DNA from: Eledone cirrhosa
Lineage: Eukaryota
Direction of reading: 5' to 3'
Length of the DNA: 64,000 nucleotides
Assembly (NCBI GenBank): GCA_964016885.1
Contig: OZ024749.1
Location: 5,208,001-5,272,000, forward strand
Part shown: positions 15,321 through 55,609 of the stretch, piece after piece
Layout of the letters: each line of letters begins with the position of its first letter
Position numbering within the stretch: the first letter of the stretch is position 1
Position numbers and translations under genes: made by a program
Notes under the pieces: generated by a model
Seen by the model: the letters and a program-made list of their open reading frames with translations, nothing else
Database searches by the model: none
What the model was told of the DNA's origin: nothing

Positions 15321-15999
15321 ATGGTGACAAGTATTTGGATGATACAGTAGTCATCGTAGAAAGAGACGAGGTGAAATGTTGATGATGACATATTAAATGT
15401 GGAATTATAAGATGTCACATAAATGTGAAGGTGCTGGAATCTAGAGAAGTGCTGAAAGGAAACAAAACCTGAGATGCATATTATTAAATTATTGTGAGTC
15501 GTGAAAAATACGGTGAAAAAAGATATTGCCAAGTTAGAGAAAACGGAAATCCTTGGATGTTTAAGCTATAAGATTATTTTATTTCAAGAAAGGATTCTTC
15601 CAATATTGACATGCAGCAACAGTATTGAGGAAGCAAATTTCGAAGGACGAAATTGGTAAAAAATTCTGTATGATAAATGTATTAAGAGCCTTGTGCAGGA
15701 TTTACTAAAGACACATAGAAAGAAAAAATATAAAAGTGAAATTGTCCGGTATTTGCTGTGTTTTGCTAAACACTTTACTAGATATAATTACGGGGAGATC
15801 TATGGCATGGCATTGTTGATCACTAAGAACAATGTTATGACATATAGAAACCAGATTTCACTACATTGATGAATGAGACAGACAAAATGTGTTACAAAGT
15901 ATGTTCAACACACACCAGACCATATATTGTCCTCCAATATATTTGTTTCACACACAGATATATTGTCCTCCAATATGTTTGTTTCACACACAGAAACAA

Positions 16000-16322
16000 A
16001 ATGGCGTAGGACAGAAGAAAGGAAAGGCACAGAAACAAAGAAAGGAATCCCCAGTCACTGAAGAGGTCACAGAGTGTGTGACGAAAGGACTATGACTATA
16101 TATAAACAACTATCTGGTTGTGAAACCAACCAACCAACCAGAAATTTAGAAATTTGTAGATTTGTAAATTTATAAATTTATAAATATATAATAAATTGAA
16201 GTGAAAGCAATTGGTGCGTATGTTTCTTATTGGCAACATGACCCTCCCAAAGTATAACAATATCGGTTTCAACACACGATTTCAGATAAAGAATCTTGCT
16301 AAACAAATTCAGAAACGAAATG
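16000..16322 (+). mobile_element. Short non-autonomous TA-associated element carrying a hammerhead (Penelope pLTR-like, family A)
   Basis: Contains the hammerhead at 16053; 3' part catgaccctcccaaagtataacaat..aacacacg.tttcagataa is shared with 35400-35490, 23770-23840 and 36070-36140(-); ends in (TA)n. Confidence 0.65.
16053..16097 (+). ncRNA. Minimal type I hammerhead ribozyme motif
   Basis: AGTCA-CTGAAGA-gGTCACAgagtgTGTGAC-GAAA-ggac-TA-TGACT: helix I AGTCA/TGACT, helix II GTCACA/TGTGAC, 1-bp helix III with a 4-nt loop. Confidence 0.7.
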
Positions 16323-16416
16323 TATATATATATATTTGTGTATATATATATATTTGTGTATATATATATATTTGTATATATATATATTTGTATATATATA
16401 TATATATATATATTTG

Positions 16417-16447
<31 letters not shown>

Positions 16448-16518
16448 ATATATATATATATTTGTATATATATATATATATTTGTATATATTTGTATATA
16501 TATATATATATTTGTATA

Positions 16519-16561
<43 letters not shown>

Positions 16562-16565
16562 ATAT

Positions 16566-16905
16566 AACAGAACACACTCACTGTTTGGTTGGTTTTCGCT
16601 TCTCGCTGTCTTTTATATCTGCGATCTAACTTACTCGGTCCTCAATGTTGCCATTGACTGACCGGCGGTAAAAAATAATACAGATACAATATATAAATTG
16701 TAACTATATATATGTGTTTGTGTCTATATTGTATCTGTATTATTTTTGACCGCCGGTCAGTCAATGGCAACATTGAGGACCGAGTATGTGCAGATCGCAG
16801 ATATAAAAGACAGCGAGAAGCGAAAACCAACCAAACAGTGAGTGCGTTCTGTTATTAATTCTGGCAATATTACGCAAATATGACCCTCCCCAAGTATAAC
16901 AATAT
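16566..16905. mobile_element. Fold-back element (arms 16566-16692 / 16726-16853, right arm extended), family A-related
   Basis: aacagaacacactcactgtttggttggttttcgcttctcgctgtc... is mirrored by ...gacagcgagaagcgaaaaccaaccaaacagtgagtgcgttctgtt. Confidence 0.85.
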
Positions 16906-16908
16906 TTG

Positions 16909-17005
<97 letters not shown>

Positions 17006-17529
17006 ATATATATATATATATATATATTTGTATATATATATATATATATTTGTATATATATATATATATATTTGTATATATATATATATTTGTATATATA
17101 TATATATATATATTTGTATATATATATATATATATATTTGTATAAATATATATATATATTTGTATATATATATATATATATATTTGTATAAATATATATA
17201 TATATTTGTATATATATATATATATTTGTATATATATATATATATATTTGTATATATATATATATATTTGTATATATATATATATTTGTATAAATATATA
17301 TATATATTTGTATATATATATATATATATATTTGTATATATATATATATATATATTTGTATATATATATATATATTTGTATATATATATATATATATATT
17401 TGTATATATATATATATATATATTTGTATATATATATATATATATTTGTATATATATATATATATATTTGTATAAATATATATATATATTTGTATAAATA
17501 TATATATATATTTGTATATATATTTGTAT

Positions 17530-17723
17530 ATAACGAAGGAAATGTGGTAAGGAACCAGGTGGACCATAACGCACCAACGTACTCAATACTTGGGGTAGTA
17601 GAGTGGGTAATAGGAACCAGTAAGACCCCGACGGCTGAGCTCAAGCCGTTTCGACGGCTAATTCTAGGGAATTAGCCGTCGAAACGGCTTGAGCTCAGCC
17701 GTCGGGGTCTTACTGGTTCCTAT
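17530..17723. mobile_element. Fold-back element family B (palindrome 17610-17723)
   Basis: ataggaaccagtaagaccccgacggctgagctcaagccgtttcgacggctaattc-tagg-gaattagccgtcgaaacggcttgagctcagccgtcggggtcttactggttcctat; both ends lie in TA satellite. Confidence 0.85.
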
Positions 17724-18186
17724 ATTTGTATATATATATATTTGTATATATATATATTTGTATATATATATATTTGTATATATATATATTTGTGTATATA
17801 TATATATTTGTGAATATATATATATTTGTGTATATATATATATTTGTGTATATATATATATTTGTATATATATATATTTGTGTATATATATATATTTGTA
17901 TATATATATATATTTGTATATATATATATATTTGTATATATATATATATTTGTATATATATATATTTGTATATATATATATTTGTATATATATATATTTG
18001 TATATATATATATATATTTGTATATATATATATATATTTGTATATATATATATTTGTATATATATATATATTTGTATATATATATATATTTGTATATATA
18101 TATATATATATATATTTGTATATATATATATTTGTATATATATATATATATATTTGTATATATATATATTTGTATATATATATATA

Positions 18187-18330
18187 TGAGCTCAAGCCGT
18201 TTCGACGGCTAATTCTGGACTAAGTCCAGAATTAGCCGTCGAAACTGCTCGAATTCAGTCGTCGGGGTCCTACTCGTTCCTATTACCCACTCTACTACCC
18301 TAAGTATTGAGTATTTTGGTGTGTTATTCG
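18187..18330. mobile_element. Fold-back element family B
   Basis: gtttcgacggctaattctggac-taa-gtccagaattagccgtcgaaac, then a long right arm ...ctctactaccctaagtattgagta. Confidence 0.85.
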
Positions 18331-18565
18331 AATATTAATAATAACATTCGATTCGTTTGCAATTATGCAAACAAGCCTCAATTTTATAGCCATGTCAGTA
18401 AAATGAACACTTCATTCTTGTTCGTATGTTGGCATGCGAACAGAACTGCAGAAACTAGTGTTTCGGGGTATCACCCTTCATCAGTACAGCTCACTGTTCA
18501 CCTGACAAACTGTCAGATCTAGTGGAAATATCTGCTATTTTGAAAAATACACAGTGACTGATAGG

Positions 18566-18812
18566 CCTGATTTGCATATTAGCAGACTGGCTAAACAGTC
18601 AGATCTGCATATTAACAGACTGGCTGATCATTCAGATCTGCATATTAACAGACTGGCTTATCATTCAGATCTGCATATTAGCAGATCTGACTGATCATTC
18701 AGATCTGCATATTAGTAGACTGGCTTATCATTCAGATCTGCATATTAACAGACTGGCTGTTCATTCAGATCTGCATATTAACAGACTGGCTGATCATTCA
18801 GAGCTGCATATT
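18566..18812. repeat. 33-bp tandem repeat, ~7 copies
   Basis: cagatctgcatattaacagactggctgatcatt unit. Confidence 0.9.
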
Positions 18813-19086
18813 CTCGTAATTCTCAAGGACAGCCTTCGTGTAAAGGTAACATACTTAAATTACATCTACACCTCATTGGTTTCCCTTATTATTTAATTGA
18901 TACCACGTGAAATAATGTCCTTCAACCACGGACACAACACACTGACAGAAATCGAACTGATGACCTTACTGATTTGATCAGATTTCACTCACTAATCCAT
19001 GTGCACACACAATATATAAGTCATTATATAAGTGTCTGTCCTTTCAAAGAAGGTATTTTAAAGCGACGAATTCTTGACCGATTAAT

Positions 19087-19136
<50 letters not shown>

Positions 19137-19142
19137 TCTCTT

Positions 19143-19178
<36 letters not shown>

Positions 19179-19288
19179 CTTGTGTTGAAGCATGTACATA
19201 CATATAGTCTAAGGCATAGACGTATACAAATATAAACCATCACATATAATACACCGACGCTTATATGATTATATGGGTGTGTGTGTGG

Positions 19289-19331
<43 letters not shown>

Positions 19332-19352
19332 CATACATACATTAATATATAC

Positions 19353-19391
<39 letters not shown>

Positions 19392-21192
19392 CATACATAC
19401 TTTGTGAGAGAATGTCTGAAATATTGATCAACACATGAGTACATCATACACACGACTCACAATAAGCAATGCAGAGGCAATGACCATCGACGCACACACA
19501 CATATACACACTGATACACACATATATACATATTAACATCAACACCCACACAGACAATATCGCGTGAAAGCGAAGTACAGAAACGATTACAGCTTTAAAA
19601 AATGATCTGCCAAGGGTAGTAATTTATCGTAAAACTATTTCCTATAAATATGTCTTTTTAGAAATATTTCTGATTGGGCTGAATTACCCTTGCTGAAAGT
19701 GTATTATGATTGATTGATACAATAATATTGTTTAAAGACTTTTCATGTCTCTTCTAATCGTATTTTAATTTGCGGTCTTGATAAATGCTTTTGTGTCTTT
19801 CATCTATTGAGCTTACTTTTTTCGGAATTGTTTTCATCTCTATATTTGTAAACATACGGGAAACACCATAATCTATATGCACAGCTATTAAAAATATATA
19901 TCTGTATAAAGAAATCGACTTTGAGGTCTCAACGTTTCGTATGTTACATACACAATCATCAGTAGATTAAAAGATGTTTTTTTTTTTGTTTTCATTATTA
20001 ATAATATATATGAAATTTATTGTATTATGATGTTATGAATAAAAGAAACCAACGCAACAAAACGAGCGATCTGTTCATGATAATTGTAATATATATATAT
20101 TTGCAATCTCTCAAGATCTCTTGGGGAATAGATGTGAATTAATTATGGTAATAAAGTGTTCTACTAGGATCTACGTAGGATCTAAATATTAAATTAAATC
20201 TAGCAATGTATATATTGTGATAGATTATTTGATATTTCCGTCATAACAAACGGACTTTCTTCTCTAAAAGCAGCACAATGCAATATGTGAAATATCCTTT
20301 GCGTGTGTGGGTGACACAGTAAACATTGTAAATTGCCATTGCTTTCCACGTTCACTTAATGTGCAGAGATTGAATTCAGGCAACACAAGTACAGAATATA
20401 TAACGTAATGAACCGGAGTACGTACTACAAATCGCCGGAAACCAGACCTGCCAAACTCTAAAACCCCAAGAGGGGAGTACCATGAGCGAAGGCGCCCCAG
20501 AAAGGGGTCAAATGAGTCAAAATGGGAGATCTTTCATAATGAAAGTCATATCCATTTTCACAGACAATACATGTCTTACCCAACCCGAAGTCGGTGGAAG
20601 ATCTCCCCGTCGGACTGGGAGAGATGACAGTTATGGGAAACTTACACAGCAAAACATTTCGTTCGATCCTCTAACAACAGTTTCTCATTCTTTTAGTTGA
20701 AAAGCAGCAAATAGGTGACGCGGATGGGGAGATAATCGATACTATTGACCCCAATACTTGACTAGTACTTTATTTAATCTAACTAGTAATCTTGAATGAC
20801 TCTTTTGATCTCGGTATGATTTGAACGTCCGACTCCCTAACAATTCCTGCTGAACTAGTACATTATCTATGCAGCCCCAACAGATGTTGAACGGTGCTGT
20901 TGATCTAAATAGAAATTTGAACTTAGAATTCAGAGAACTGGCGCAAATAACATGTGGTGTTTATTCCTATGAATTAGAAATTATAGTGATTCGCTGTTGA
21001 GCTTAGTGAGTGATGAAACTTAATTTCATATTCTCGCATGTCACAGCCTCTTGTGCAGAGCGCAGAGAGCCACAATAAATGCTGTATGATGTATGTAGCC
21101 TGATGTCATCCGTCATCCTCATATTAGCCTTTGGTGCGGGACAGCCGTTGATTATGATTTAATCTGGTTGTATTCGAGTTCAATCTAAGGTA

Positions 21193-21380
21193 AATAATTG
21201 TTTCTACTTTTGGCACAAGGCCAACAATTACAAAATGCATTACTGGTACTTAATTTTATCGACCCCGTAAGGATGAAAGGCAAAGTTAACCTCGGCGGGA
21301 TTTGAAGTCAGAATGGCAAGGGACGTAAATCTATGGGTCAAAGCATGGTGTCCGACCCTCTAGCGATACTGCCAATCCAC
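21193..21380 (-). mobile_element. tRNA-derived SINE
   Basis: Full reverse-complement copy from tail aattgtttctac to head gatactgccaatccac. Confidence 0.9.
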
Positions 21381-21948
21381 CATAACTATCAATCTAAGGA
21401 GAATAATGGTCTTAGATACACACACACACATCTACACACTCACACACAAACCCCCACATGCACACGGACACACACAAATAACAATATTATTATTAATATT
21501 AATTATTTTCTCTTCCTTCTCGTTTTCTGCAAATCCTCTAGGAACTCACACCCACCTCACACCCAGATCCCTTTCAATCATGTTTATACCTATACTTTTA
21601 TTTATATTCATATTTGCATCTTTGCTTTCATCTGCAAACCCTAAAACTAATCTTGCTCTCTTGATACAAGGAATATATATATATATATATATATATATGT
21701 GTATGTATATGCAGAGGTTATATTTAACTTGTTGGGATTCAACGAGCTTAACATTTTTTATAACTCATATAAAGCACTCAACATTTAAATAAACCGTTAT
21801 CTTTTCAACTTTTCGGACACTCATTTGCATACTTACTCATAACTTTCTATTAGCCTCAATAAAATATTATCTCCACTATCCAGGAAGCTCCAACCGTTAA
21901 TGTTGTCTTTTTCCGGGTATGTCAATATTTATTTATGAAACAAATCTG

Positions 21949-22014
21949 TATTTTATCTGATGAAAGCGCACCATAATTTGCCTTTGTTGCCCTTGAAATA
22001 TATATAATAAAATA
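21949..22014 (+). ncRNA. Minimal type I hammerhead ribozyme motif (family C)
   Basis: TATTTTAT-CTGATGA-aagcgca...tgccctt-GAAA-tatata-TA-ATAAAATA; 8-bp helix I; palindromic helix III. Confidence 0.75.
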
Positions 22015-22055
22015 AATATGGCTTTATAAATATAGTTTCCATTTATTAATATAAA

Positions 22056-22248
22056 TATAACAAAGAAGGTAAGATACCAGATGGACCACAGCACAACGGA
22101 GTACTCGATACTTGGGGTAGTAGAGAGTGTAACAGTGAAAAGAGTCAGGATCCCGTCGGCTGAGCTCCGGCCGTTTCGACAACTATATCCATTCGTAGCT
22201 AGCTGTCGAAACGGCCGGGGCTCAGCCGTGGGGATCCAGATTATTTTC

Positions 22249-22250
<2 letters not shown>
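22056..22250. mobile_element. Fold-back element family B (diverged)
   Basis: ggatcccgtcggctgagctccggccgtttcgaca...tgtcgaaacggccggggctcagccgtggggatcc; left arm homologous to 17530-17610. Confidence 0.8.
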
Positions 22251-22283
<33 letters not shown>

Positions 22284-23292
22284 CTAGAAAAAATGAAACA
22301 AAATTTCATTTCTCACTCTTAGTACGGCTGTTACTTAAATATAAGTATGTATACGTACATACATATATGTATACAGACGTACAGTAGTATGTATATATAT
22401 ACATACATGCACACACATATATACATGTACGTATGGATTTACCTAGCATTTATTATAATGCTCGGTTTGTTTGTAAACATACATCCCGAATTAAGCCGTA
22501 CAGTGTTTAGCAACCATCGTTGCCCTTTTGTTCAACACTGACAAAGGAACGATGTACTAGTTTCAAGCTTATTAGCTATCGTCAGCACTGTATACCTTCC
22601 TGCAAGATGATTGAACGTCTGAAAGTATATACTTTCCTTATGCATATTAACGGGTGAGCAGCCTAATTTGCATATCAAGTGAGTTAATCGGCCGGGCGCA
22701 CCGAAAACGATAAATGGAAAAATTGAAACGAAATTTAATTTCTCACTCTTAGTACGGCTGTTACTTAAATATAAGTATGTATACGTACATACACACATGT
22801 ATACAGAATCACCTTCACTTTGTAACTATAACCTTTCTTTTGAATGGAGCTTTACCCCCATTGTTTCATTATACATACATACATACATACATACATACAT
22901 ACATACATACATACATACATACATACATACATACATACATACATACATACATACATACATACATACATACCATCATATATATATATACATAGTATTTTAA
23001 CTAATATATATATATAACTCTACCTGAAACACCATAATCGAGGTGAGCACATATATAGAGATGTACCAATATATGTGTGTAAGCCATCTCTCCAGTCCAT
23101 TCAGCTGGCAAAATAGGAGTTGTATGAGATCACACAGGTGTCCCGCTGAATCTCACTGGGAACTAAATTCAGGAAATAGCTACGCCAATTTAATAAACAG
23201 GTTGCTCCATTACAATTGTAATACTCGTGGCCCAAACAGATAGAAGCCCAACACCACACAGACGGATATAGTTTGTTGACTACATATATATA

Positions 23293-23490
23293 TATAGGAA
23301 CAAGTATGACACCGACGGCAGAGCTCAAGCCGTTTCGACGGCTAAATTCAGTCCAGAATTAGCCGTAGAAACGCCTTGAGCTCTGCCGTTGAGGACATAC
23401 TTGTTCCTATTAATCACTCTACTACCCTAAGTATTGAGTACTTTGGTGCGTTATGGGCCATCTGGTTCCTTACCACACGTCCTTCGTTAT
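23293..23490. mobile_element. Fold-back element family B
   Basis: ataggaacaagtatg...gtttcgacggctaa..ttagccgtagaaacg...catacttgttcctat; right arm extends to ccttcgt(TA)n. Confidence 0.85.
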
Positions 23491-23509
23491 ATATATATAT
23501 ATATATATA

Positions 23510-23581
23510 TTGCCAGAAATGATAATAAAAATGGCGTAAGCATTAGAGTAGAATGGAAGAAAACATAATAGTACCACTGAT

Positions 23582-23622
<41 letters not shown>

Positions 23623-23845
23623 ATCTGTATTTTTAACCAATGGTCAATCAACGATAAACATTGATTGCTAGATAAATTAATTATGGAGATATAAAAGACA
23701 CAGAAGCCAAAACCAACCCAAACCAAAAAGTGAGTGTGTTCTCTTATTATTTCTGGCAATATTGCAACAATATCACTCTCCCCAAATAAAACAATGTTTC
23801 AACACACGTTTTCATATAAAAAATACCATGCAAAACAAAAATATA
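23510..23845 (+). mobile_element. Family A-related element with a CTGATGA remnant interrupted by (TA)n
   Basis: aaaatggcgta...ccaCTGATGA(ga-TA)n, then ttgtatctgtatt...gagtgtgttctcttatt.tttctggcaatatt homologous to 16728-16900. Confidence 0.6.
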
Positions 23846-23862
23846 TATATATCTATTTATAT

Positions 23863-24195
23863 CTAGGGCGGGTAAAATTCCCGAGATCCATGGACGAGTT
23901 CTCTCCGGCGGTCTCTGTCCCTCATTATCGCTGCCATGTCCAGCGTCTCCAACAGACCAGTGTCTGTCCTTAGGGCATCAACATACGTTAACCTTAGTCT
24001 TCCTCTTCCAGTGTGCGATGTAGGAGCACTCAGATGGTGGATGGGTGCTACACGAGAATGCTGAGGATAGCTCTAAACATTAATCAGTATACACTGAGGA
24101 TGAAAAACTCAGAGCTGTATGGGACCCTCCCAAAAGTCAGCTCAAAAGTGACACTGAGGAGACTGAGGTTAGCTGGACACGCTCACCGACATCCA
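23863..24195 (-). mobile_element. RTE-like LINE 3' fragment with 5' inversion
   Basis: Minus 24012-23863 reads TGRGRLRLTYVDALRTDTGLLETLDMAAIMRDRD..*; plus 24013-24195 reads VDGCYTRMLRIALNI..NSELYGTLPKVSSKVTLRRLRLAGHAHRHP, the immediately upstream part of the same ORF type. Confidence 0.75.
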
Positions 24196-24196
24196 A

Positions 24197-24258
<62 letters not shown>

Positions 24259-24662
24259 ACACACACATATATATTTGTTGTGAAAGAGTCATTTCTCAAT
24301 CTTGGCGCAAAACCAATTTTTTATTCACATGACCTCTACCGACCAATCAAAATTGTTTTGACCACAAGACATTTTGCAACACCAAAGTAACGCTGGAGCC
24401 ACCTTTTTAACATAAAAACAGGTAGAATTCCCAAAACTAATCAGATCAGAGCCAACAGCACGGACACTCTATCTTAAAATTATTTTTGAAAAGCATTTAG
24501 AAATGCGCAACCGGTAAAAACTTAAAAACTTAAAACCACAACTGAATACTAACTCATACAATCACTAATACTCTTTTATTCCTAATTAAACCATTTTTCA
24601 ACTGTGAACAATTTGTCAGCATTTTCTATTCCGTTTACCAATATATATATATATATATATAC

Positions 24663-24720
24663 AATATAAGATCAAAAGATGGTTAAAAGAGTTCCAAGTA
24701 TTTTATTATGCGCATTTCAA
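24663..24720 (-). mobile_element. 58-bp terminal fragment of the Naiad pLTR
   Basis: aatataagatcaaaagatggttaaaagagttccaagtattttattatgcgcatttcaa nearly matches 38180-38237; flanked by (TA)n. Confidence 0.85.
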
Positions 24721-27659
24721 TATATATATATATGTGTGTGTTTATCTGTGAATGTGTGTGTGCGTGTGTTTATATTCGTACACATAGATTGCTATATATA
24801 CGAATATATAGATGTATTGATACTTTTCTTTTTGCAATGAAAACATATTTCTTCAAGGTATTCGGATTCGAAATTATCTGTGAAAGCTATTTTATCTGCT
24901 ATTACATGAAGATTATATTACTCTCCGAAATATTATATATATATATATATGTAAAATGTGTGTGTTTTTGTGTACACATGTTTGTATGTATGTATGTATG
25001 TATATATATAAGTATATATATATATATGACAACAGATACGCTTTTTGAAAAGAAAGGTGAATAAAAAATTTGAGAAAATAATTCTGAAAATATATTGATA
25101 TATATGGAAATATATGGAATAAATATAAAAGCATTTCTGGTAACGATAAATTAGACAAAAATAGTATCATGATTATTATTAATATTACCATGCAAATTAT
25201 AATACTGATTATAATAGAACTATGTTGTAAAAGTACAAATATCGATGTATATTATTATTGTTAATATTATAACTACACAAATGATCAAGTTGATGATAAG
25301 GAGATAAGAAAATGGTGGGTAAGTGTAAAGGTAGACAATAATGGACGGAGTTCGTAGATTGGAGAAAAAATGAATGAGTTTAAGAAACCAAAGCTAGCTC
25401 ACATCTCACCATGGGTGAGATGTAAGCGAGCTTTTCTCGCTCATATCTCACCCATATCGATTGTCTGTATCTCTCGTCCATGAATTCACCAAGCTTAAGC
25501 TTATAGATATCATGTACTTGTCTCATCCTATCTTTCCGTTGCAATACCATCTTTGGTTGTTTACATATCTCGCTCGCTTCTCGCTATTTTACTTGTCCCA
25601 ATAACTTTATTTAGTTATTGCTCGCACCAACCAGAGGTATATGATTTTTAGGGCGATGAAATACCAATGAAGGTTGGAAGATCACTGATGAAGGACTAAT
25701 TTTATTCATATGTAACCCATGTGCAACCACGCACCACACCATTTTTCTTATATATATATACATATATATATATATGCAATAGACGTCCCTCGGTTTCGAC
25801 AATGAGAGGTCTAGCTGTTCGGTCAATGAAACTTCATTTTCATGAAATTAATGATTCAGCAGAAAGGTGTTCCCTTAAAGTAATTTTCAGAGATTCAACA
25901 TGACACAGTATATATTTTTTTATATTAGTGGCCGAGCATTCCAAAAAACAGTATACCGTTGAAGAAATGTTCACTGAATGTTTACGTGGCACAGGCTGTG
26001 ACAGTTGTTGTCACAATCCATCTAACAGGCTTTCATGCTGCATTGTTATCAGATCTGACCTGAGACCTCAACCGACGCCTGCATATTATAGCCCTAGGCT
26101 AGCTCTACAGTGTGTATGCTCGTTTTCACAAGTATACACCCCATTCTCCCATAACAATTTCAGTCTAGAGTTTGATAATTTGACTAACCTAGTTTTTCAA
26201 GCCTTTTCTCTGACCAGAGAAATATAATTATGAAGCCTGCATCATCCGCTATTCATCCACACTCACCCACACCAAATTATTTGACAGGTCATAACACCAT
26301 ATTACCCTCACCACTGATTTGAATATTTACATAACGCTACTAATTATATATGTAATTTAATTATGCAAATTCATATGAAACTGCGATAAATTATGGATCA
26401 TTAATGTGTGGTAGTTCTACGATAACAGTTATCAAGAGGGTATTTTGTCCTCTCAAATCAGAAAAATAGTTACTTCTATCTCTATCTAGCTATTATTCTA
26501 AAGTGTTTGTATATGTCGTGTAAAACATCGGTCACGCTGGAAAGCGGATGGTAAGAATGAGAATAAGAGAGAGAAACTTTGTATGCCTGTGACGGATTTT
26601 GGTGGGGGTTTTTAAAATTAATCTACGTTATAACAAATCTCTATGAATTGTTAGAGAAAGAGAGCGTGGGTGATTGACAGATCGTGGTCATGGTGTTTTT
26701 CTAATCCCACGGAGCAGCAGCAAGTTGTTTGTAGAAAGGGTATGATAGGCGGAGTTTGTGTCTGAATCTTTTTATTTTGTGTTTGTTTTATATTTCGGAT
26801 GACTAAATAGTTGTTTCTAATTAAAACATGGAATTTCTACATGGTTAGCTGGTAGCAAAGAAAATATTGGACCAGTAGAAACGTTTTCTAGCCACTAATA
26901 TCAGAAAAATCTGTTCGATGACATAATCGTGTCCTTTACCCTAAACTTGTCCCTAATTCCTGATTAAATCGTAAGGGCGTCGTCGTAAAACAGCGGGTCT
27001 TAATTGTATGTAAAGATCGGCATACAAAGATGGCGAGAAGCATTCCTCTTTTAGTGGGAACTGTGCTGGTTTCTTCCAGAAGGTGAATGTGTGTGAGAGA
27101 AAGAGAGGGGGACTGGAACTCAGTATAGAACTGATGTTTATTTATTAATGAAAGATAAAGTTCACCTTAGCAGGATTTGAACTCAGGTTGCAGTGAGCCG
27201 GAGAAATATTGGAAAACATTGTAGTCATCGTAATAAAGTCTCTGCCAATTGGAAGCCTCTGCTTGAAATAAGGGCTGGAACATACTTCAGATGTCATTGT
27301 AATAATTCAACCTTTTTACTCCTGAAGGTCCTTAAGCTAAATATGATGGATTATAAGGCATCCATTATATAACATCCACAACTATCACGAATCAAATATG
27401 TATAATCTGTCATTATTGGGCGGCTATCATATCTTTAAGATGAACATTAACAGAATAACTTACTCCTGCTTATATAAATAGCAAATGCGCCATAGCTAAT
27501 TTCCTGTCACCTTTGCGATAAACTGTATATACCATACGTACCCAGTTATAAGAGATATCTATTCAATCAGCTACACGTGTGTACATACACATTCATTCAT
27601 ATATGCATACACACATACACACATACATACACGCATACATGCATACACGCATGCGTATA

Positions 27660-31217: not shown

Positions 31218-31400
31218 GTCAGCTTGTATGTGTGCAGATAATTGTTTCTACTTTAGGCACAAGGCAGCAATTACCCATGCATTACTGGTACTTCATTTTA
31301 TCGCCCCGTAAGGATGAAAGGCAAAGTCAACCTCGGCGGGATTTGAACTCAGTAAAGGGACGTAACTATGCTGGAAAGCATGGCGTCCGAGCCTCTACCG
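31218..31400 (-). mobile_element. tRNA-derived SINE with an apparent target-site duplication
   Basis: Full copy; tatgtgtgcagataat occurs immediately on both sides (~31207 and ~31401). Confidence 0.88.
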
Positions 31401-31641
31401 ATACTGCCAACCCACCACCCTATGTGTGCAGATAATATTACTTCCTTTGTTACGATGACGTTGTGAAATAAACATCAGCAATATCTAAACTTTTACTCTT
31501 AATGCCAATCCTGTTCAGAAGAGAACTACGATTATTTGGTCATTCTAAACGTATGTTTAAAGAAATGGAAACGTATTGATAATGACAGACCAGGTTTAAA
31601 GGAAACAAACAACATAGGCCAAAAGCCTCGATAGCTTAGAG

Positions 31642-33157: not shown

Positions 33158-34175
33158 GGGTGGTCGATTGGCAGTATCTGTAGCGCGTAGGACACCCTGC
33201 TTCACTTCATAGAGTTACGGCCATTTACGTTCCGAGTTCAAATCACGCCAAGGGGTCGATAAAATAAAGTACCAGTAATGCACTGAGAGTCGATTTAATT
33301 GAATTCCCCTCCCCTAAATTGTTGACCTTATGTCTATAGTAGAAATTATTATTTAACAAAAGAAATGAATAGAAGATAAAATTGACCTTCGGTACATTTG
33401 AACAAAGAGTGTGAAGATTCGAAAGAAATACTGCCAAACATTTTATCAGAAACTCTAACAAAATGGCCAATACCTTACAAACAATAGCATCTAATGTTTT
33501 CTGATTTAAGCAAAAGGTGAATAATTTTGGGGGAGGGTAAAGTTGATTAAGTCGACTCCAGTCCTTTGCTGGTACTTTATTTTATCGAAACCACAAGAAT
33601 GAAAAAAGAAGGCTAACCTCGGCTTGATTTGAACTCAGAACGTAAAGGGTCGTATATCTAAGCCGCAACACATATTGTCCGAAGTCTTAATGGTTGGTTC
33701 TGACAATCCACCACTTTAATCCCAGTTAAAATAATGGTTTCTTATATAGGCACAAGGCCGGCAATTTTTTTTTTTTTTGGAGGGGGGGGGGGTCAATTAA
33801 ATCGACCCCAGTGCATCACTGGTTCTTTATTTTATCGACCCCGTAAGGATGAAAGGCAAAGTTAACCTCGGCGGGATTTGAATTGAGACCGTAAAGGACC
33901 GTAATTATATGCTGCAAAGCATGGCGACCGACACTCTTCCGGTTTTGCCAATCCACCACCCAGGCAAAATAATTGTTTCTACTTTTGGCACAAGGCCAGC
34001 AAATTACCAGTGTATTACTGGTACTTTATTTTATCGACCCCGTAAGGATGAAAGGCAAAGTTAACCTCGGCGGGATTTGAACTCAGAATGGCAAGGGCCG
34101 TAACTCTATGTGTCAAAGCATGGAGTCCGACCCTCTACCGATACTGCCAATCCACATGCCAATCCACCACCCAGG
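33158..34175. mobile_element. SINE cluster (one + copy at 33158-33350; about four - copies at 33370-34175)
   Basis: Repeated SINE cores; ccaatccaccacccaggcaaaataat is duplicated at ~33947 and ~34159. Confidence 0.88.
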
Positions 34176-35124: not shown

Positions 35125-35497
35125 ATATTGTTATACTTTGGGAGGGTCATGTTGCCAAAAAGAAGCACACTTCCCCGTCGTTTTTTGTTTCAATTTATTA
35201 TAAGTTTCCGGTTGGTTGGTTCGAAAAGGCGGAAGGTTGTTAATATATTGTCAAATATCTATTTTCGTTGAGGAGGTCACAGAATGTGTGACGAAATAAC
35301 TTTGACAATATATAAACAGCCTTCCGGTTATCAAACCAACCAGCAAGCCAACCGGAAACTTATAATAAATTGAAGTGTAAACCAACATGTGTGTTTTATT
35401 GGCAACATGACCCTCCGAAAGTATAACAATGTGTTCCAACACACGTTTTCAGATAAGTAATCTCGCAAAACAAATTAAAACACGAATTATATATATG
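35125..35497. mobile_element. Fold-back version of the family A element with its axis at the hammerhead core
   Basis: attgttatactttgggagggtcatgttgcca...atattgtcaaa..tttcgt | tgagga-ggtcacagaatgtgtgac-gaaa..tttgacaatat...tggcaacatgaccctccgaaagtataacaat. Confidence 0.8.
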
Positions 35498-35741
35498 AAA
35501 TAAACTTAATAATCATGTCTTTATGTGTTGTATGTTATTCAATAAAGGCTCGTAGATGAAAATGTTTTCGGGGTTCCAAAATTTAGACCAGCATCGACAT
35601 TTTCCAATTCATATATAGACCTAGTTAGGAATGATGTTTATACTACAAACCTACCTTTTATATCTCAACAGATCTAACCTAACACATACTTAATTATACA
35701 TTTTCTCCACATATATATAAATACGTATGTATGTCACTATA

Positions 35742-35792
<51 letters not shown>

Positions 35793-35880
35793 CTATGAAT
35801 GCGTGTGTATGTATATGTGTGTGCGTGTGATTATATATGTATGTATGTGTGTTTCCGTATATATATATATATATATATAT

Positions 35881-36068
35881 AACTGTTTCTACTTTTGGCA
35901 CAAGACCAGCAATTATGCCAGTGCATTACTGGTACATTATTTTATCGACCCCATGAGGATGAAAGGCAAAGTTAACCTCGGCGGGATTTGAACTTAGACC
36001 GTAAAGGGACATAACTATGCTGGAAAGCATGGCGTCCGACCCTCTACCGATACTGTCAATCCACTGCC
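35881..36068 (-). mobile_element. tRNA-derived SINE
   Basis: Full reverse-complement copy. Confidence 0.9.
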
Positions 36069-36069
36069 A

Positions 36070-36202
36070 ATGAATTAGTTTTGCGAGATTTTTTATATGA
36101 AATCGTGTGTCGAAACAAATATTGTTATACTTGGGGAGGGGCATACTTGTGTAATAATATTACCAGAATTAATAACAGAACACACTCACTGTTTTGTTGG
36201 TT

Positions 36203-36204
<2 letters not shown>
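36070..36204 (-). mobile_element. Family A-related 3' fragment
   Basis: cgtgtgtcgaaacaaatattgttatacttggggagg...aataacagaacacactcactgttttgttggtttg is the reverse complement of the 16830-16905-type sequence. Confidence 0.8.
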
Positions 36205-38092: not shown

Positions 38093-38216
38093 TAGGAGGT
38101 GAGTTTTATTGTAGTACAATAAAGCAATGCAGATATCGTATAAGAAGCACTCTACAGTTTGTGGGACTGGAGTATGCATAATATAAGATCAAAAGATGGT
38201 TAAAGGAGTTCCATAT

Positions 38217-38285
38217 ATTTTATTATGCGCATTTCAAAAACAAACATCATCAAGCAATAATATTTGTGTTTTCATCAGATAAAAC
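38217..38285 (-). ncRNA. Hammerhead ribozyme, antisense copy in the inverted pLTR
   Basis: Reverse complement of 41767-41835. Confidence 0.8.
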
Positions 38286-38666
38286 AGGAGAACATGATAT
38301 GAAGGCTAAAAAAACACTTGTTGATAGTGCAGTTTTTAATCAACATATGAAAAGTGGTTTTAGATTGATGTGTGATATTGGGAAAAATATTTTATTTAGA
38401 GAGGGGGGGGGGGAGGATGAAAAGGTAAGGAGATGAGAGGGAGAGATGGGTGATAGAGAGAAAGAGATAGTTTTTATAACTGAGAGGAGATATATTTTTT
38501 ACATAGAGGGGTTGAAAACCGTTGGAAGATACTGTATAAATTAAAAATTTTGAAAATTAACGAAGGGAGGATATGTGCGAGGAAAAAATATTTTATTTAG
38601 GGAGGGGGGGGTGGAAAGGATGAAAAAAAGGGGGGAGGAGATGAGAGTGAAGGTGGAGAGGGAGAG

Positions 38667-40781
38667 ATGGGTGATAGAGAGAAAGAGATGGTTTTTATAA
38701 CTGAGAAAAAGATATATTGTTTTAAAAATGTTTTAGTCCACTCTGACAAAACCAATAACCTATATGGTATTTCCAAGGATAATTATAACAACCTTATCCT
38801 AAAGGAACTTAGGAAAAAGTATCGTAAAACCAACCATGAAAATTTAGAATGCATAAACCTTGAAGCCTATGAGATTATGTCAAAACTTGGCATTGAAAAA
38901 AAGACCGAACCATTCCTCCCAAGAACTCCGAGGATAAATCTCAAGGATCACAAAAACAATTTTCGCACTGAACTACCTGTTAGATTAATCGCCCCCTCTA
39001 AATCTGATCTGGGGGTTGTTAGTAAAGCCATCTTGGATAGGATTATCCCACAGGTTTGTTCTAATTGCTCTTCTTTAAACCTAAATTTATGGTTTGGTAC
39101 TTCTGAAGTGATTGGCTGGTTCAACAAATTGGATAATAAAAACAAACTAAAATTTATTCAATTCGATATTGCCAGCTACTATTCCTCCATTTCGCCTTCA
39201 CTTCTCAATAATGCTCTATCTTTCGCACTTAAATATTCTGACATCACCACATATGAACTTCACATTATCCTCACCGCACGTAAAACCATCCTAGATTTCA
39301 ACAACGAATATTGGACCAGAGCCGATACCTCTAACAACTTTGACATCACAATGGGAGCATCCGATTCATCCCAATTGACTGATTTAATTGGTATCTTCAT
39401 TTTGAACTCTTTGAGTCGGAAAATTCCTCAACTTCGCGGTGGAATTTATCGTGACGATGGACTCTTTACTATCCTAAATTGCAATATAGTTAAACTTAAT
39501 ATTATTAAGAACAATATACGTAATCTCTTTAACCAACATAACCTAAAAATTGAATTTGATAATAATATCAAACTAGCTAATTTCTTGGATGTATCTCTTA
39601 ATCTTGACACTGGCCTATATTACCCTTACCATAAAAACAATGAGAATCTTAATTATGTTAACTTTAAATCTAACCATCCTACCAATATCAAGAATGCTAT
39701 AGTTAATAATATTGGAAATAGAATATCTAACATATCTTCTAATAAAAACATCTTTGATGCTAACGCCAATTACTATAATAACGCACTTTCTAAAGCCGGC
39801 TATCCAGATAAAATCAAATATAATAAAGAAACAAATTCTAGGAAAACTTACAGTAGAATAATTAATCATGACCATTCCAATAATTTTAATAAAAGACCTA
39901 GATACAAAAACATAATCTGGTATAATGCTCCTTTCTCCATCTCTATTAATAATAATATTCCTAAATTATTTTTTAGTGCCTTAAATAAATGCTTCCCTCC
40001 CTCACATATCTATAGTAAAATATTTAACAAACACACCATCACATTTTCATATTCTACATCCTCCAATATTTCCAACATCATCTCTAAACACAACAACAAA
40101 ATATTAAATACTAAATCTCTTCCTTCCAATATTGAATTTCATAATAACAGTAATAGTACTCCCGACGTCATTGTAAACCCTAGGCAAACTTCTGTAAACC
40201 CAAATACAACGTCAAACACAACTTCGCTAAATGTTCATAATCCAACTCTAAATCAAGAAACTATTATTCCTATTATTCCTATCGCAAACAACTTCTCCAA
40301 TCCAATTCCTTCTATAGATAACACTAGATCACTCATTAATAATCTCTCTAATTGCAACTGCCGCATTAAAAATAAATGTCCTCTCAACAACCATTGCCTC
40401 GATAAAAACTTAATTTATGAATGTAAAATTATAACTAGCACCAATTCCTTCATCTATTTTGGCTCCACTTCCACCTCTTTTAAAGCTCGTCTCTATAATC
40501 ATCATTCATCTTTCAAATACAAACTTAAAAGAACTAACACTGCTCTCTCAGAACTCATATGGTCCTTAAAAGACAAAAACATTAAATATAACATCTTTTG
40601 GAAAAAGATTTCTTCTGCATCCTCATACTTGAACAGCTCTCTATCTAAAATCTGTAATCTTTGCCTAAATGAAAAATTTACCATTATCTCTAACCTAGAA
40701 TCTATAATAAATAGACGCTCAGATTTGTTTTCTATCTGCCTGCATAAATTCCATAGAACTTTTCACAAAGTATACAGTTAA
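38667..40781 (+). CDS. Penelope/Naiad reverse transcriptase-GIY-YIG endonuclease (704 aa; first ~19 aa come from the inverted pLTR)
   Basis: SDKTNNLY (DKT variant of the PLE DKG motif), LKDHK..F..PVRLI, FDIASYY, MGASDS, YRDD, NFLDV, CNCx5Cx5C, LIY..YFG(ST), FKARLYNH, CNLC..EK..CLH; no stops. Confidence 0.92.
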   Translation: MGDREKEMVFITEKKIYCFKNVLVHSDKTNNLYGISKDNYNNLILKELRKKYRKTNHENLECINLEAYEIMSKLGIEKKTEPFLPRTPRINLKDHKNNFRTELPVRLIAPSKSDLGVVSKAILDRIIPQVCSNCSSLNLNLWFGTSEVIGWFNKLDNKNKLKFIQFDIASYYSSISPSLLNNALSFALKYSDITTYELHIILTARKTILDFNNEYWTRADTSNNFDITMGASDSSQLTDLIGIFILNSLSRKIPQLRGGIYRDDGLFTILNCNIVKLNIIKNNIRNLFNQHNLKIEFDNNIKLANFLDVSLNLDTGLYYPYHKNNENLNYVNFKSNHPTNIKNAIVNNIGNRISNISSNKNIFDANANYYNNALSKAGYPDKIKYNKETNSRKTYSRIINHDHSNNFNKRPRYKNIIWYNAPFSISINNNIPKLFFSALNKCFPPSHIYSKIFNKHTITFSYSTSSNISNIISKHNNKILNTKSLPSNIEFHNNSNSTPDVIVNPRQTSVNPNTTSNTTSLNVHNPTLNQETIIPIIPIANNFSNPIPSIDNTRSLINNLSNCNCRIKNKCPLNNHCLDKNLIYECKIITSTNSFIYFGSTSTSFKARLYNHHSSFKYKLKRTNTALSELIWSLKDKNIKYNIFWKKISSASSYLNSSLSKICNLCLNEKFTIISNLESIINRRSDLFSICLHKFHRTFHKVYS

Positions 40782-41261
40782 TATTCAATTCTTTATCAAT
40801 TTAGAATCTTTTCTCAAAGGCACATATACATACACCTCTTTAAAATATACCCATCTACCTTACTTTAAAGGGCATTATACACTCTATAATACTCGTTTAC
40901 TCATTACCCTCATTCTATCTTCTCGTAAAATAATAACATTTGTTTTTGACATTTTGAATATTCATCCGCAATCATTATTATTTTTTCTCTCTATCATAAA
41001 TCTTTTTAATCTCAATTTCATCCTTAATTTATTATTATTTTTTTCTCCCCATCAACGAACTCATTATTAATACATATGAATTCAATATACAAACTTTAAC
41101 TTCACATTATTTTTCTCAAATCCTTCTACACACAAACCTTAACAATTTTTCTCTTCGCTAATTTTGAAATTGCCACAATACATACATTTCTTCTTTTGAC
41201 GTTAGAATATTCACCCACAATTATTATTTTTTTCTCTCTATCTTCATACATAATTTCTGTT

Positions 41262-41670
41262 CGTTAATTTTCAAATTCCTTTAATTTATACATTATCTTC
41301 CAACGGTTCCCAACCTCTCTATATTAAAACAATATATCTTTTTCTCAGTTATGAAAACTATCTCTTTCTCTCTATCACCCATCTCTCCCTCTCCACCTTC
41401 ACTCTCATCTCCTCCCCCCTTTTTTTCATCCTTTCCACCCCCCCTCCCTAAATAAAATATTTTTTCCTCGCACATATCCTCCCTTCGTTAATTTTCAAAA
41501 TTTTTAATTTATACAGTATCTTCCAACGGTTTTCAACCCCTCTATGTAAAAAATATATCTCCTCTCAGTTATAAAAACTATCTCTTTCTCTCTATCACCC
41601 ATCTCTCCCTCTCATCTCCTTCCCTTTTCATCCTTTCACCCCCCCCCCCTCTCTAAATAAAATATTTTTC
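41262..41670. repeat. ~225-bp tandem duplication in the Naiad 3' UTR
   Basis: cgttaattttcaaa..ttaatttataca.tatcttccaacggtt..ctatctctttctctctatcacccatctctccctc occurs at ~41262 and ~41486. Confidence 0.85.
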
Positions 41671-41766
41671 CCAATATCACACATCAATCTAAAACCACTT
41701 TTCATATGTTGATTAAAAACTGCACTATCAACAAGTGTTTTTTTAGCCTTCATATCATGTTCTCCT

Positions 41767-41835
41767 GTTTTATCTGATGAAAACACAAATATTATTGCTT
41801 GATGATGTTTGTTTTTGAAATGCGCATAATAAAAT
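41767..41835 (+). ncRNA. Minimal type I hammerhead ribozyme in the 3' pLTR
   Basis: GTTTTAT-CTGATGA-[aaacacaaatattatt gctt gatgatgtttgttttt]-GAAA-TGCGCAT-A^ATAAAAT; palindromic helix III; predicted cleavage after AUA at 41828. Confidence 0.85.
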
Positions 41836-41866
41836 ATATGGAACTCATTTAACCATCTTTTGATCT

Positions 41867-41899
<33 letters not shown>

Positions 41900-44432: not shown

Positions 44433-44455
44433 AATAATAATGATAATAAAAATAA

Positions 44456-44840
44456 TAATTGTTTCTACTGTTGGCACAAGGCCAGCAATTATCCAGTGTA
44501 TTACTGGTGCTTTATTTTATCGACCCCGTAAGGATGAAAGGCAAAGTTAACCTCGGCGGGATTTCAACTCAGACCATTCAGGGACGTAACTCTATACGGG
44601 AAAGCATGGCGTCCGACCTTCTACCGATACTGCTAATCGATCGCCCTCTATATACTACTACTACTAATAATAATAATAATTGTTTCTACTTTTGGCACAA
44701 GGCCAGCAATTACGCAGTGTATTGCTGGTACTTCATTTTATCGACCCCTTAAGGATGAAAGACAAAGTTAACCTCGGGGGGTTTGAACTCAGAATGGCAG
44801 GGCTGTAACTCTTTGCGTCAAAGCATCGCCTCCGACCCTA
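44456..44840 (-). mobile_element. Two tandem tRNA-derived SINEs
   Basis: Two SINE cores with (TAA)n tails. Confidence 0.88.
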
Positions 44841-50298: not shown

Positions 50299-50440
50299 CT
50301 GTGTGTGTCCGTGTCAAAATATACGTGGGCGTCTGTGCTTGCGTTTATGTCTCGGAAAATTAACAGTTCGACAAAAAGACATTGATAAAGAAGAAACAAA
50401 TTTGACAATATATATATTTATTGGGGCTGGGATAAATAAA

Positions 50441-50565
50441 TAAATGGCGGTATTACCCTAGTATATTTGCAGCCTAGGGGCTGAAACCAGCATATATATA
50501 TATATATATATATATGCTGGCTTCAGTCCCTAGGCTGCTAATATACTAGGGTAATACCGCCATTT
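50441..50565. repeat. Palindrome with a (TA)n loop
   Basis: aaatggcggtattaccctagtatatttgcagcctaggggctgaaaccagc(AT)n gctggcttcagtccctaggctgctaatatactagggtaataccgccattt. Confidence 0.88.
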
Positions 50566-50674
50566 AATTCCTAAGCCGAAATACGATTCTCGCTAATTTA
50601 TATTTGTATATATATATATATATATATACACATTGATATTAAATAAATGGAAACTATATTTATAAAACCATATT

Positions 50675-50735
50675 TATTCTATTATATATATTTCAAGGGT
50701 ACCAAAACTTTGGTACGCTTTCATCAGATAAAATA
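50675..50735 (-). ncRNA. Minimal type I hammerhead ribozyme motif (family C)
   Basis: Minus: TATTTTAT-CTGATGA-aagcgtaccaaa gt tttggtaccctt-GAAA-tatata-TA-ATAGAATA; flanks homologous to 21877-22055. Confidence 0.78.
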
Positions 50736-51469
50736 CGAAGTGTGTTTTATAAATTTGGACATAACCAAGGAAAATACCTTAACGGTTCAAGTTTTCCTTG
50801 GATATATATATATACATATATAATAAGGTTAAAATAGAATATAAGAATATATTTAAATATACGGTACAAAATGAAAGGAATAATGTGAAGATGAATGTTT
50901 TGATATGGGGAAAATAAAAATATAATTGTAAGGAATATAAAAAAAGAGATTTAACATAAAATTAAAATAGTAAAACGTTACATGATGCGATAAAAAGCTT
51001 TGCACATAATAACCAATAACAACAAAAAATATATAAAGTTAATACAACTTCGATGAGTAAACAGATAAATATAAGACTCGCCGCCATATTAAATGAGAGT
51101 GTGTGAAACAGAACACATCAGAATAAAAGTTATGGAAAATAAATTATAAAGTGAATTTGAAGTAGTTTTAAATAGAGTATATATATATATATATATATAT
51201 AAGTATGTGCACGTACATACATATATGTATACAGACGTACAGTAGTATGTATATATATATATATACATACATGCACACATATATATGTGTACGTATGGAT
51301 TATATATATATATATATATATATATTCTTTATATTACTTACTTATTACTTTTTCATTTTTGTTTTCAACTTTTATATAAATTCACTTTACTGTCAACTCA
51401 TGATGACTTCTGTTCTAAATTTCCTTTTAATATATTCACATTCACATAATTTCGGGAACTAGTATAATT

Positions 51470-53099: not shown

Positions 53100-55609
53100 T
53101 TTTTTCTTTATGCGCGGGGACATAGAAATAGTCGGGCTGGATACCCGATCACGCAGTTAAACCACTGGGAATGAAGAACCCCAAGCCCTTTGTCAGGGCA
53201 TTCTTCAAGGAGAAGGCATCTCAAGAAACTGGGTTAACTCCGACATAAAACCTGCGGCTCTGTAGTTACCGATGATGTTGATCTTTTCTTCTTTTCGAGT
53301 TATAGCTACTGTCGCTCAGAGAGTGGGATTGGCTCTGTACACAGTCTTTCCTCACTTTAAAAATATTCTTCACGCACAGGCATTGCACGAGTGCATTAAT
53401 AATTATTAATAGTGTACTATTATTATTATTATTATTATTATTATTTATTTTTTTCCCCAATTCAATGATGTTCCAAAACAATATAGAAGAGATAATTGGC
53501 AATAAGCATTCTGTAACAAAAGAGATAATTGGCAATAGGGCAGGGGCCCCAGATAATCACAGCCTGGGCCCGCTCGTCATCGTGCAACTGTAATAGAGCC
53601 AAACAAGACATTGAGTCTTGGCTGCTGGAGCGTACGGACGCTGCTTGACCGGATCCCTTGGAACGTCCTGAACGAAGGACCGCTCTTGTTGCAAAGGAGC
53701 TTCGACGTTACGATCTTGACATCGTGGCTTTATCTGAGACGAGGATAGCTGGAGAGGGTCATCTTACAGAATCTTGTGGAGAATATACATTCTTCTGGAA
53801 AGGAAGAGATGAAGGAACCAGAAGAGAGGCAGGGGTAGCATTTGCTGTTAAGATTGCTCTTGTGGATAAATTAGAAGTATTCCCAGTGTCTTATGTCCAT
53901 GAGAATTCCGCTGGACAAAGGAATATATGCGACCCTGGTGAGTGTGTATGCTCCAACTATGAATTCTCTCGATGAAGAAAAAGTGTCCTTTTACCATGCC
54001 TTGAAAGGTGTTTTATGAAATATCCTTCAGGCAGACAACGTCAACGTGCTTGGTGACTGTAATGCTAGAGTGGGTAGGGATTTTAACACATGGAATGTAA
54101 TCGGAAGGCATCGGGTGGGAAAGTGTAACAGCAATGGTATGCTCCTACTGCAGATGTGTGAGGAGCTGGATCTGTGTGTTACCAGCACCATGTTTCAACA
54201 AAAGAACAAATTTAAGACTACATGGATGCATCCTGCATCTATGGAATTGGATCTTTTGGACTACGTCATTGTCAGGATGCGTGACAGAAGGGATGTGCAA
54301 TGTGTTCGTGCTCTTCATGGAGCTGAGCGCTGGACGGACCACTGCCTGGTGCGCGCAAAATTGAAACTAATCACTAAACGTAAAATCCGGGCTCCTGGTG
54401 TTACCCTGCCCAGAAGTTTGAATGCTGGTCATCTTAGGGATAAAAATGTGAAGAGGACATTGCGAGAAGAGATGGTTTAATGCGAATGATGAACATATAG
54501 AAGACTTGTTGGCTGATAAGAAGCGTGCTCTGTTAATTGCCCCTGGTAAGCAGTACAGTGAATCAAATATCTATGTGTATGGTAAACAACTTGGAGTGGT
54601 TGATCAGTTTGTCTATCTTTGAAGCACTGTCAATCGATACAGCAACCTTGATAATGAGATCCCACTCAGGATTAGGAAAGCAAGTGATGCTTTCGGAAAG
54701 CTAGAAAGGCGATTCTGGGGTCGGCGAAACATATGCAAGAAGACAAAGGTAAAGGTGTACAAGGCATGTGTGCTCTCTTCTCTTCTTTATGCCTGCGAGA
54801 CCTGGGTCACATATAGACACCACCTTAAGCAATTGGAGCGTGTCCATCAGATGTGTCCCAGTCGGATACATGGCGTTCACTGGAGGGACCACATCAGTGA
54901 TGTCGAGATTTTGGAAAGCTCTCTGTGTAAAAGTATAGAAGCCCTTGTACTTAAACAAAGACTCCATTGGAGTAGTCACCTTGCCAGGATGAAGGATTCT
55001 AGAATACCAAAACAACACTTTTATGGAGAGTTAGTTAAAGGAAAACGACCTCCACATAAACCAAAAAAGAGGTATAAGGATTCCTTGAAATCCTCTCTGA
55101 AAGACGCTAACATCTCTGCTGATACACGGGAACATATTGCTGCTGATCGTAATAAATGGAGAAAGACTGTATATGAGGTGAAAGTTGCCTTTCAGGCATC
55201 TCGAATCGCATACGAGAAAGTAAAGCGGGATGTGAGGAAGGGCATTGCTGTTGCACTTCCACACGGCGAAGGTCCTCCTATGGTGCTGACATGCAGCGTA
55301 TGTGCGAGACTCTGCCTAAGCAAAACTGGACTCGAATGTCATCTTCGCAGTCATAAAGTAAGACCAGTGGCTGACTACCAGGCTGCTGTTGGAGATGCTA
55401 CTCATCATGCTTGCCAAACATGTGGTAGAGAATGTAAATCAGCAGGAGGGCTCAAACGACATGCAAGAGTACACGCACTCCAACCACAGCCGACTATTCC
55501 CAGTGAATGTTTTGGTTGCCGACTCTGTGCAAGACATTTTAGATCATTGGCTGGGCTAAAAAGCCACATTCGATCGCAGCGCTGTTAGTTGCTATCGTGT
55601 GTGTGTGTA

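Follow-up and report, generated by a model that had tools for sequence, protein, structure and literature searches.

A window of 64,000 nucleotides from Eledone cirrhosa (contig OZ024749.1, positions 5,208,001 to 5,272,000), made of AT-rich animal DNA with many microsatellites and dispersed repeats, contains at its positions 35125-35486 two 5′-truncated copies of a small repeat joined head to head, with a tail at one end alone and TA-rich flanks. The reading that we favour, with a probability of about 0.6, takes the two arms as copies of a non-coding hammerhead repeat that were laid down in a single insertion by the enzyme of a Penelope-like element (PLE), the inverted arm having been produced by a fold-back of the cDNA. 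The locus bears on the origin of the inverted partners of PLE insertions and on the role of their barely active hammerheads (PMC3846280, PMC11167929, PMC8557442), and as a single case it settles neither.

The inverted arm (35125-35268, minus strand) is 5′-truncated and tail-less, its inner end reaching 2 nt into helix II and its outer end lying on a (TA)n repeat. It is followed on the plus strand by an unpaired spacer of 22 nt (35269-35290), which holds the remnant of the catalytic core from U4 onwards, the extra G, the 5′ strand of helix II and its loop, and then by the direct arm (35291-35430) with the end of helix II, GAAA, a broken helix III, the body and the 3′ motif. The tail (35431 to about 35486) leads into a short TA repeat, and no target-site duplication is visible within the TA repeats. 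The initial annotation had described an inverted arm joined to a direct copy at the ribozyme core, at around 35267; the join is there, and its position can be refined to 35268|35269. An alignment of the two arms has 114 matches, 18 mismatches and 18 gap columns; counted over 137 columns they differ by 24 events, and their identity is ~86%. The 30-nt 3′ motif occurs at three sites of the window (16232 on the plus strand, 35127 on the minus strand and 35401 on the plus strand), and in none of 100 shuffles.

An intact copy of the same element lies on the plus strand at 16 kb. Sequence inspection and motif searches delimit a head (15998-16052) that opens with AAAATGGCG, which is followed by a minimal type I hammerhead motif (16053-16097), by the body with the conserved 3′ motif (16098-16261, from alignment and repeat analysis), where a private 8-bp tandem expansion occupies 16142-16191, and by a tail (16262-16322) that precedes a TA-rich microsatellite. 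In the hammerhead motif, AGTCA (16053-57) pairs with TGACT (16093-97) in a 5-bp helix I, the core CTGAAGA (16058-64) is followed by one extra G at 16065, and helix II (GTCACA/TGTGAC, 16066-82) has 6 bp and a 5-nt loop. After GAAA at 16083-86 comes a helix III of 2 bp with loop GA, and the predicted cut falls after 16092, behind the dinucleotide TA at 16091-92, so that the CUGANGA and GAAA core and the NUH cleavage site are all present. A relaxed type I descriptor run on both strands of the window matched this site and no other, against a background of one match in each of 4 of 40 block-wise dinucleotide shuffles (mean 0.1). The complete motif noticed in the initial annotation is thus borne out, with all the parts of a type I hammerhead and as a unique match in the window. 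The Rfam check suggested at the same time gave no such backing: the covariance models returned no hammerhead at the gathering score over the whole window, nor any among the 90 matches with E<=10 in 15000-25000. The miRNA-like Rfam matches, all below the gathering score, are generic hairpins and TA repeats.

Judged from its sequence, the 16053 motif belongs with the minimal type I hammerheads of PLEs. The short helix I, the long helix II, the extra G16065 and the pair G16066-C16082, which corresponds to G10.1-C11.1, are all marks of those ribozymes. With the metazoan motifs of PMC4209133 it shares the type I topology, the 5-bp helix I, the extra base between 9 and 10.1, the G10.1-C11.1 pair, the long helix II, the vestigial helix III and the occurrence mostly as dispersed single motifs; unlike the motifs described there, it has a loop III (GA) that is not self-complementary and a helix II of 6 bp, and the parent element with an open reading frame was not found. 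The 15.2-16.2 pair is G-C, and the G is kept in 95-99% of the family among the variants listed. As a dimer, the GA loop would give tandem G-A; the predicted energies are -23.3 kcal/mol for the dimer fold against -31.2 for the best co-fold, and for the monomer an alternative fold at -12.0 kcal/mol is favoured over helices I and II, which give -10.7 kcal/mol.

The 28 nt of the intact copy at 16059-16086 differ from 35269-35296 at two points alone, core position 7, which is polymorphic in the reads, and loop II. Hammerheads tolerate change at both places. No compensatory pairs were seen in the two copies and the variants listed. The direct copy at 35 kb begins at U4, with C3 lost, and its G15.2-C16.2 pair is gone, since 35297 is a T where the family has G. 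The 5-bp helix III that can be drawn after GAAA at 35293 was rejected, since such stems are found at 43 of 851 sites, a background of 5%.

The two copies had been read as parent and product, a relation that the alignments do not support. The 16053 copy and the direct arm at 35 kb are 85% identical, with no gaps (182 matches and 31 mismatches), and in a three-way alignment 16 sites join the two arms, 12 the direct arm and the 16053 copy, and 10 the inverted arm and the 16053 copy, several of these grouping sites falling in poorly aligned stretches. Given this identity, the grouping of sites and the private 8-bp expansion, the 16053 copy is a cousin of the 35-kb locus and not its parent.

The sequencing reads indicate which of the two forms is the usual one. 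Four of nine listed runs were compared with 35125-35700 at 80% likeness, which gave 6,152 and 7,347 fitting contigs in two contig runs, and 50,229 and 46,622 fitting reads of 12.5 and 12.8 million in two raw-read runs, these being RAD reads and as such a biased sample. Of the reads that cover 35272, most (25,148 of 28,719 and 24,172 of 27,279) run into a loose end before 35269, the majority sequence of which is the 16053-type head; counted by eye, 28 of the 30 nt upstream of 16059 agree with it. The contig loose ends listed at this point (157 plus 94 in run X1, 237 in run X4) finish in the helix I strand with 60-65% agreement. Mean read depth falls from ~38,000 and 36,000 at 35285-35304 to 27 and 22 at 35245-35264, and contig depth from ~1 million in the core to 21 and 295, so that immediately before the junction no more than about 0.1% of the core depth is left. 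By the loose ends and the drop in depth, the intact 16053-type form is the normal one and the joined form of 35 kb is not present in high copy. These data also make it improbable that a master element of palindromic form exists and multiplies in that shape, an idea suggested by the identical geometry of all four copies of another family of the window, family B; RAD sampling and the loss of hairpins weaken the count, as hairpin DNA is often missing from sequencing libraries. The depth of the tail is 15-33% of that of the 3′ motif, as expected for an optional tail, depth being here no measure of copy number. Altogether, the hammerhead motif of the small family is supported as a real one and as part of a large family. 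With thousands of small copies in one genome, one could count directly where the pivots fall relative to the ribozyme and how often the two arms share alleles.

The architecture of the 35-kb locus is already known for PLEs, and the locus is in this respect an ordinary PLE-type insertion. In the standard layout of endonuclease-bearing PLEs, a 5′-truncated copy is preceded by an inverted 5′-truncated one, and the tail is one-ended (PMC8557442). Head-to-head PLE repeats with palindromes at their junctions have been read as self-priming on an antisense template (PMC3846280), and a PLE protein cuts AT-rich DNA on both strands, with two start sites that bound the tail (PMC11167929). The 35-kb locus resembles these inverted-repeat insertions in its head-to-head truncated copies, one-ended tail, microsatellite target and junction hairpin (PMC3846280; PMC8557442 Fig. 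2). Unlike them, its unit is a non-coding element of roughly 330 nt, and its junction hairpin can be named as helix II of a hammerhead; the tail of the small family measures about 55-60 nt, against 30-40 in known PLEs (PMC11167929). As judged by these sequence features (an inverted truncated 5′ copy, an optional tail at one end and a (TA)n target), the small family behaves as a non-autonomous passenger of PLEs.

A young, autonomous-type element close to the Hydra group of Penelope elements is found 3 kb away (38178-41874, plus strand) and has the same inverted layout as the 35-kb locus. Its PLE-type open frame (38601-40781) carries DKT and CxCX5C motifs, which are marks of the Hydra clade, whose target is (TA)n (PMC8557442). 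Pfam did not recognise the frame, and the assignment comes from the motifs and from three homologues at 34-40% identity. An inverted, 5′-truncated copy of the 3′ end of the element occupies 38178-38725 (543 matches and 4 mismatches), with its pivot 450 nt upstream of a CTGATGA..GAAA motif at 41774, which together with a palindromic TGCGCA after it spans 41774-41830. No sequence link was found between the small families and this one autonomous element of the window (p 0.08-0.73).

The small family also has features in common with the non-LTR retrozymes of animals, which are non-coding, about 300 nt long and low in GC, carry a type I hammerhead, and for which a dependence on PLEs has been proposed (PMC7229834; bioRxiv 10.64898/2026.07.22.740005). 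Unlike retrozymes, it does not stand in tandem arrays in this window, and its hammerhead is minimal rather than canonical. No array of 150-450-nt units was detected at 15300-16330, with one descriptor match in the window, and a degenerate tail-like piece is all that lies upstream of the intact head. This region (15911-15994) holds a 36-bp duplication, tail-like and in direct orientation just 5′ of the head (p = 0.0005 against the 36-kb copy), its sequence hinting at a partial tandem. A tRNA-derived SINE was discarded as another identity for the small elements, with 0 genes found by ARAGORN in the window, a program that decayed tRNA heads can escape. The core pattern of the small family had 0 matches in metagenome and viral contigs. 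In a literature search mostly outside subscription journals, we found no published description of the small hammerhead family, no paper on octopus hammerhead families, and none that links the pivot of an inversion to helix II.

According to the fold-back proposal, the RNA template would have been uncut at insertion, since the copied sequence includes helix II and the core, both of them located 5′ of the cut site. Reverse transcription would start at the tail end and halt in the structured ribozyme core, where the cDNA end would re-prime at the foot of the hairpin that helix II forms; the fold-back copy would then be joined to the target at the tail-less end of the family, and the arms would later drift to about 86% identity. 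A snap-back model had been favoured in the initial annotation, and self-priming is a reasonable mechanism that was already proposed for PLEs in 2013. In vitro, a PLE mainly uses uncut RNA as its template (PMC11167929), and cDNA snap-back has been documented for R2 (PMC11371274), where, as in our proposal, the 3′ end of the cDNA primes synthesis along the same cDNA, ahead of the formation of the 5′ junction; R2 differs in its class of enzyme and in that its inverted piece, as described in that work, has no fixed second end.

The allelic state of the arms points in the direction of one template, as both carry a minor state of the family (C at 35359 and its mirror G at 35204), from which 89% and 92-99% of the contig depth differ. 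Moreover, the cDNA end at 35 kb is predicted to fold into the helix II hairpin, with the inverted arm beginning at the hairpin foot. Five nucleotides of the intact copy (16054-16058) can pair with 16078-16082, which predicts a pivot close to the one at 35 kb. The junction shows no exact microhomology; with a fold on helix II, 7 bases stay unpaired, and the 5-nt route predicts five junction bases, of which two remain. The site of the pivot is not unique, because the intact copy permits priming over at least 5 nt at 51 of its 254 positions, and by rough arithmetic chance alone would put a breakpoint in the 45-nt motif of an element of ~260-330 nt about one time in six.

A distinctly less probable explanation, though the most serious of the others, invokes two RNAs that were primed on the two target strands, one from the tail end and the other from the tail-less start site, with their truncated cDNAs joined head to head. 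A PLE protein indeed cuts and extends both strands from two start sites bounding the tail (PMC11167929), the inverted arm at 35 kb and the copy at 16909 have their tail-less ends at one and the same point, and the 24 events between the arms, together with the lack of exact microhomology, would suit two templates. It fits poorly with the minor allele common to both arms, with the locus-specific changes that the arms of family B have in common, and with the inner ends, which lie <=26 nt apart at the core, a rare outcome for two independent truncations. Ten of the 24 arm differences fall in one window of 25 columns, and this clustering is borderline and not significant (p about 0.05-0.07; p = 0.07 by permutation, with 30 of 581 matched simulations as clustered), for which reason we do not claim a block-wise divergence of the kind that two templates would leave.

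A later second insertion into or beside the first copy, or an artefact of assembly, is unlikely as well. PLEs do insert beside earlier copies (PMC6765202), and none of the contigs listed spans the junction; a second insertion, however, should have left a displaced head on the far side, where there is none, the fold-back of a read would yield identical arms instead of arms at 86%, and the right flank of the locus is present in run X1 with 254 of 255 letters. Finally, the pivot inside the ribozyme motif might suggest that self-cleavage sets the end where the cDNA folds back. This is the least credible of the explanations, being excluded at the 35-kb locus itself: the equivalent of the predicted cut (16092 in the intact copy, 35302 here) lies 34 nt downstream of the junction, and a cut RNA could therefore not have held the core and helix II that were kept. 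In addition, a PLE RNA with a dead ribozyme is inserted normally in vitro (PMC11167929).

Returning to the fold-back reading, whether the ribozyme core has a special part in it is a separate matter, for which the other inverted junctions of the window are informative. Eight head-to-head junctions can be counted: the 35-kb locus, 16567-16909, 23510, the autonomous element and four of family B; the palindrome at 50438, which looks tail to tail, is left out of this count. The pair at 16567-16909 is young, with arms at 97% (121 matches and 4 mismatches) around an AT-rich spacer, and its pivot lies just 3′ of the expected position of the core, of which nothing remains. The copy at 23510-23840 (plus strand) carries at its head a 19-nt inverted stub, which matches its own 3′ part at 18 of 19 positions (0 of 2000 shuffles were as good) and is joined about 50 nt upstream of CTGATGA; further on, this copy has (TA)n in place of helix II and GAAA. 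At five of the eight junctions (35 kb and the four of family B), mirrored GAAA motifs stand 26-37 nt apart around a hairpin like helix II. Among the 15 best-supported read joints, none switches strand inside the core. The top opposite-strand joints (35125 to 35432-39, 35158 to 35309-94 and 35216-22 to 35318-42) were rejected as pivots, because ordinary copies map partly to each arm, and joints recorded without a direction were left aside; at the joint 35125 to 35125, 9 and 37 reads couple two tail-less ends, tail to tail.

The idea that the 35-kb locus supports a snap-back at the core goes too far in view of these data: it is one locus, the pivots of 23510 and 38178-41874 lie away from the core, and the best joints show no such switch. 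The ribozyme fold would be at most a favoured point for stopping or folding, and not a requirement. We tentatively raise the possibility, less probable than fold-back as such, that helix II of a PLE hammerhead, acting as DNA, primes the fold-back from which the head-to-head partner arises at insertion. If true, the poorly cleaving ribozymes of PLEs would have a structural job in integration.

The copies at 16730-16909, 23510-23840 and 36071-36203 form a neighbouring family, which shares with the 16053/35-kb family the 3′ end and tail, at 82-86%, and likewise the head motif. The 16053/35-kb elements had been regarded as an independent family, which holds with respect to the 17533-type elements (family B) and fails for this neighbouring family. 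The copy at 36071-36203 is truncated, with a tail, and carries the same 3′ motif.

Family B, which is unrelated to the 16053/35-kb family, offers a better lead for fold-back than the 35-kb locus. Its palindrome at 17533-17720 (minus strand) folds at a hairpin, immediately after which come GAAA and a helix III like that of a hammerhead, and the same fold is seen at 18187-18327, 22068-22248 and 23294-23487. All four copies of the window lie in TA repeats, with one long and one short arm, and are folded at the hairpin before GAAA. At the three loci compared, 10, 3 and 10 of 48 columns carry locus-specific changes common to both arms, and 0 of 48 carry changes specific to a type of arm, so that each palindrome would come from one template or have been homogenised. 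At 17533-17720, GAAA is followed by a 6-bp stem resembling helix III and then GTC, a stem present at 16 of the 851 GAAA sites of the window. There is no intact copy of family B in the 64 kb, and its putative identity as a hammerhead family accordingly comes from the 3′ half. Two metagenome matches to the family B pattern (L001 and L002) were set aside as chance, the rest of the element being absent.

Motifs of the form CTGANGA..GAAA are frequent in the window, with 12 against 1.76 expected. Further sites at 18461-18484 (minus), 19935-19962 (minus), 21957-21998 (plus), 22561-22585 (minus) and 50691-50727 (minus) are probably, from their sequence, other decayed hammerhead families, and 21877-21979 is homologous to 50705-50804. 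The palindrome at 50438-50569 has a (TA)n centre and carries AAATGGCGG close to its two outer ends; it shows 61 matches and 4 mismatches, and a geometry unlike the others. The motif AAAATGGCG, which opens the heads of both small-element families, has five sites (15998, 23528, 28256 on the minus strand, 58437, and 60855 on the minus strand) against 0.13 expected; it resembles a YY1 site and is possibly an internal promoter motif.

Among the remaining repeats, an abundant SINE-like family of roughly 190 nt, with copies 85-93% identical, occurs at 4737-4936, 21191-21380, 31238-31421, 33967-34155, 35876-36065, 44440-44647, 61823-62008 and other places. A 90-bp tandem array at 10669-12590 has long open frames on both strands and may be a repetitive coding exon, and 53649-55588 holds a broken LINE-like element with a match to the endonuclease domain PF03372 and an end that resembles a C2H2 zinc finger.
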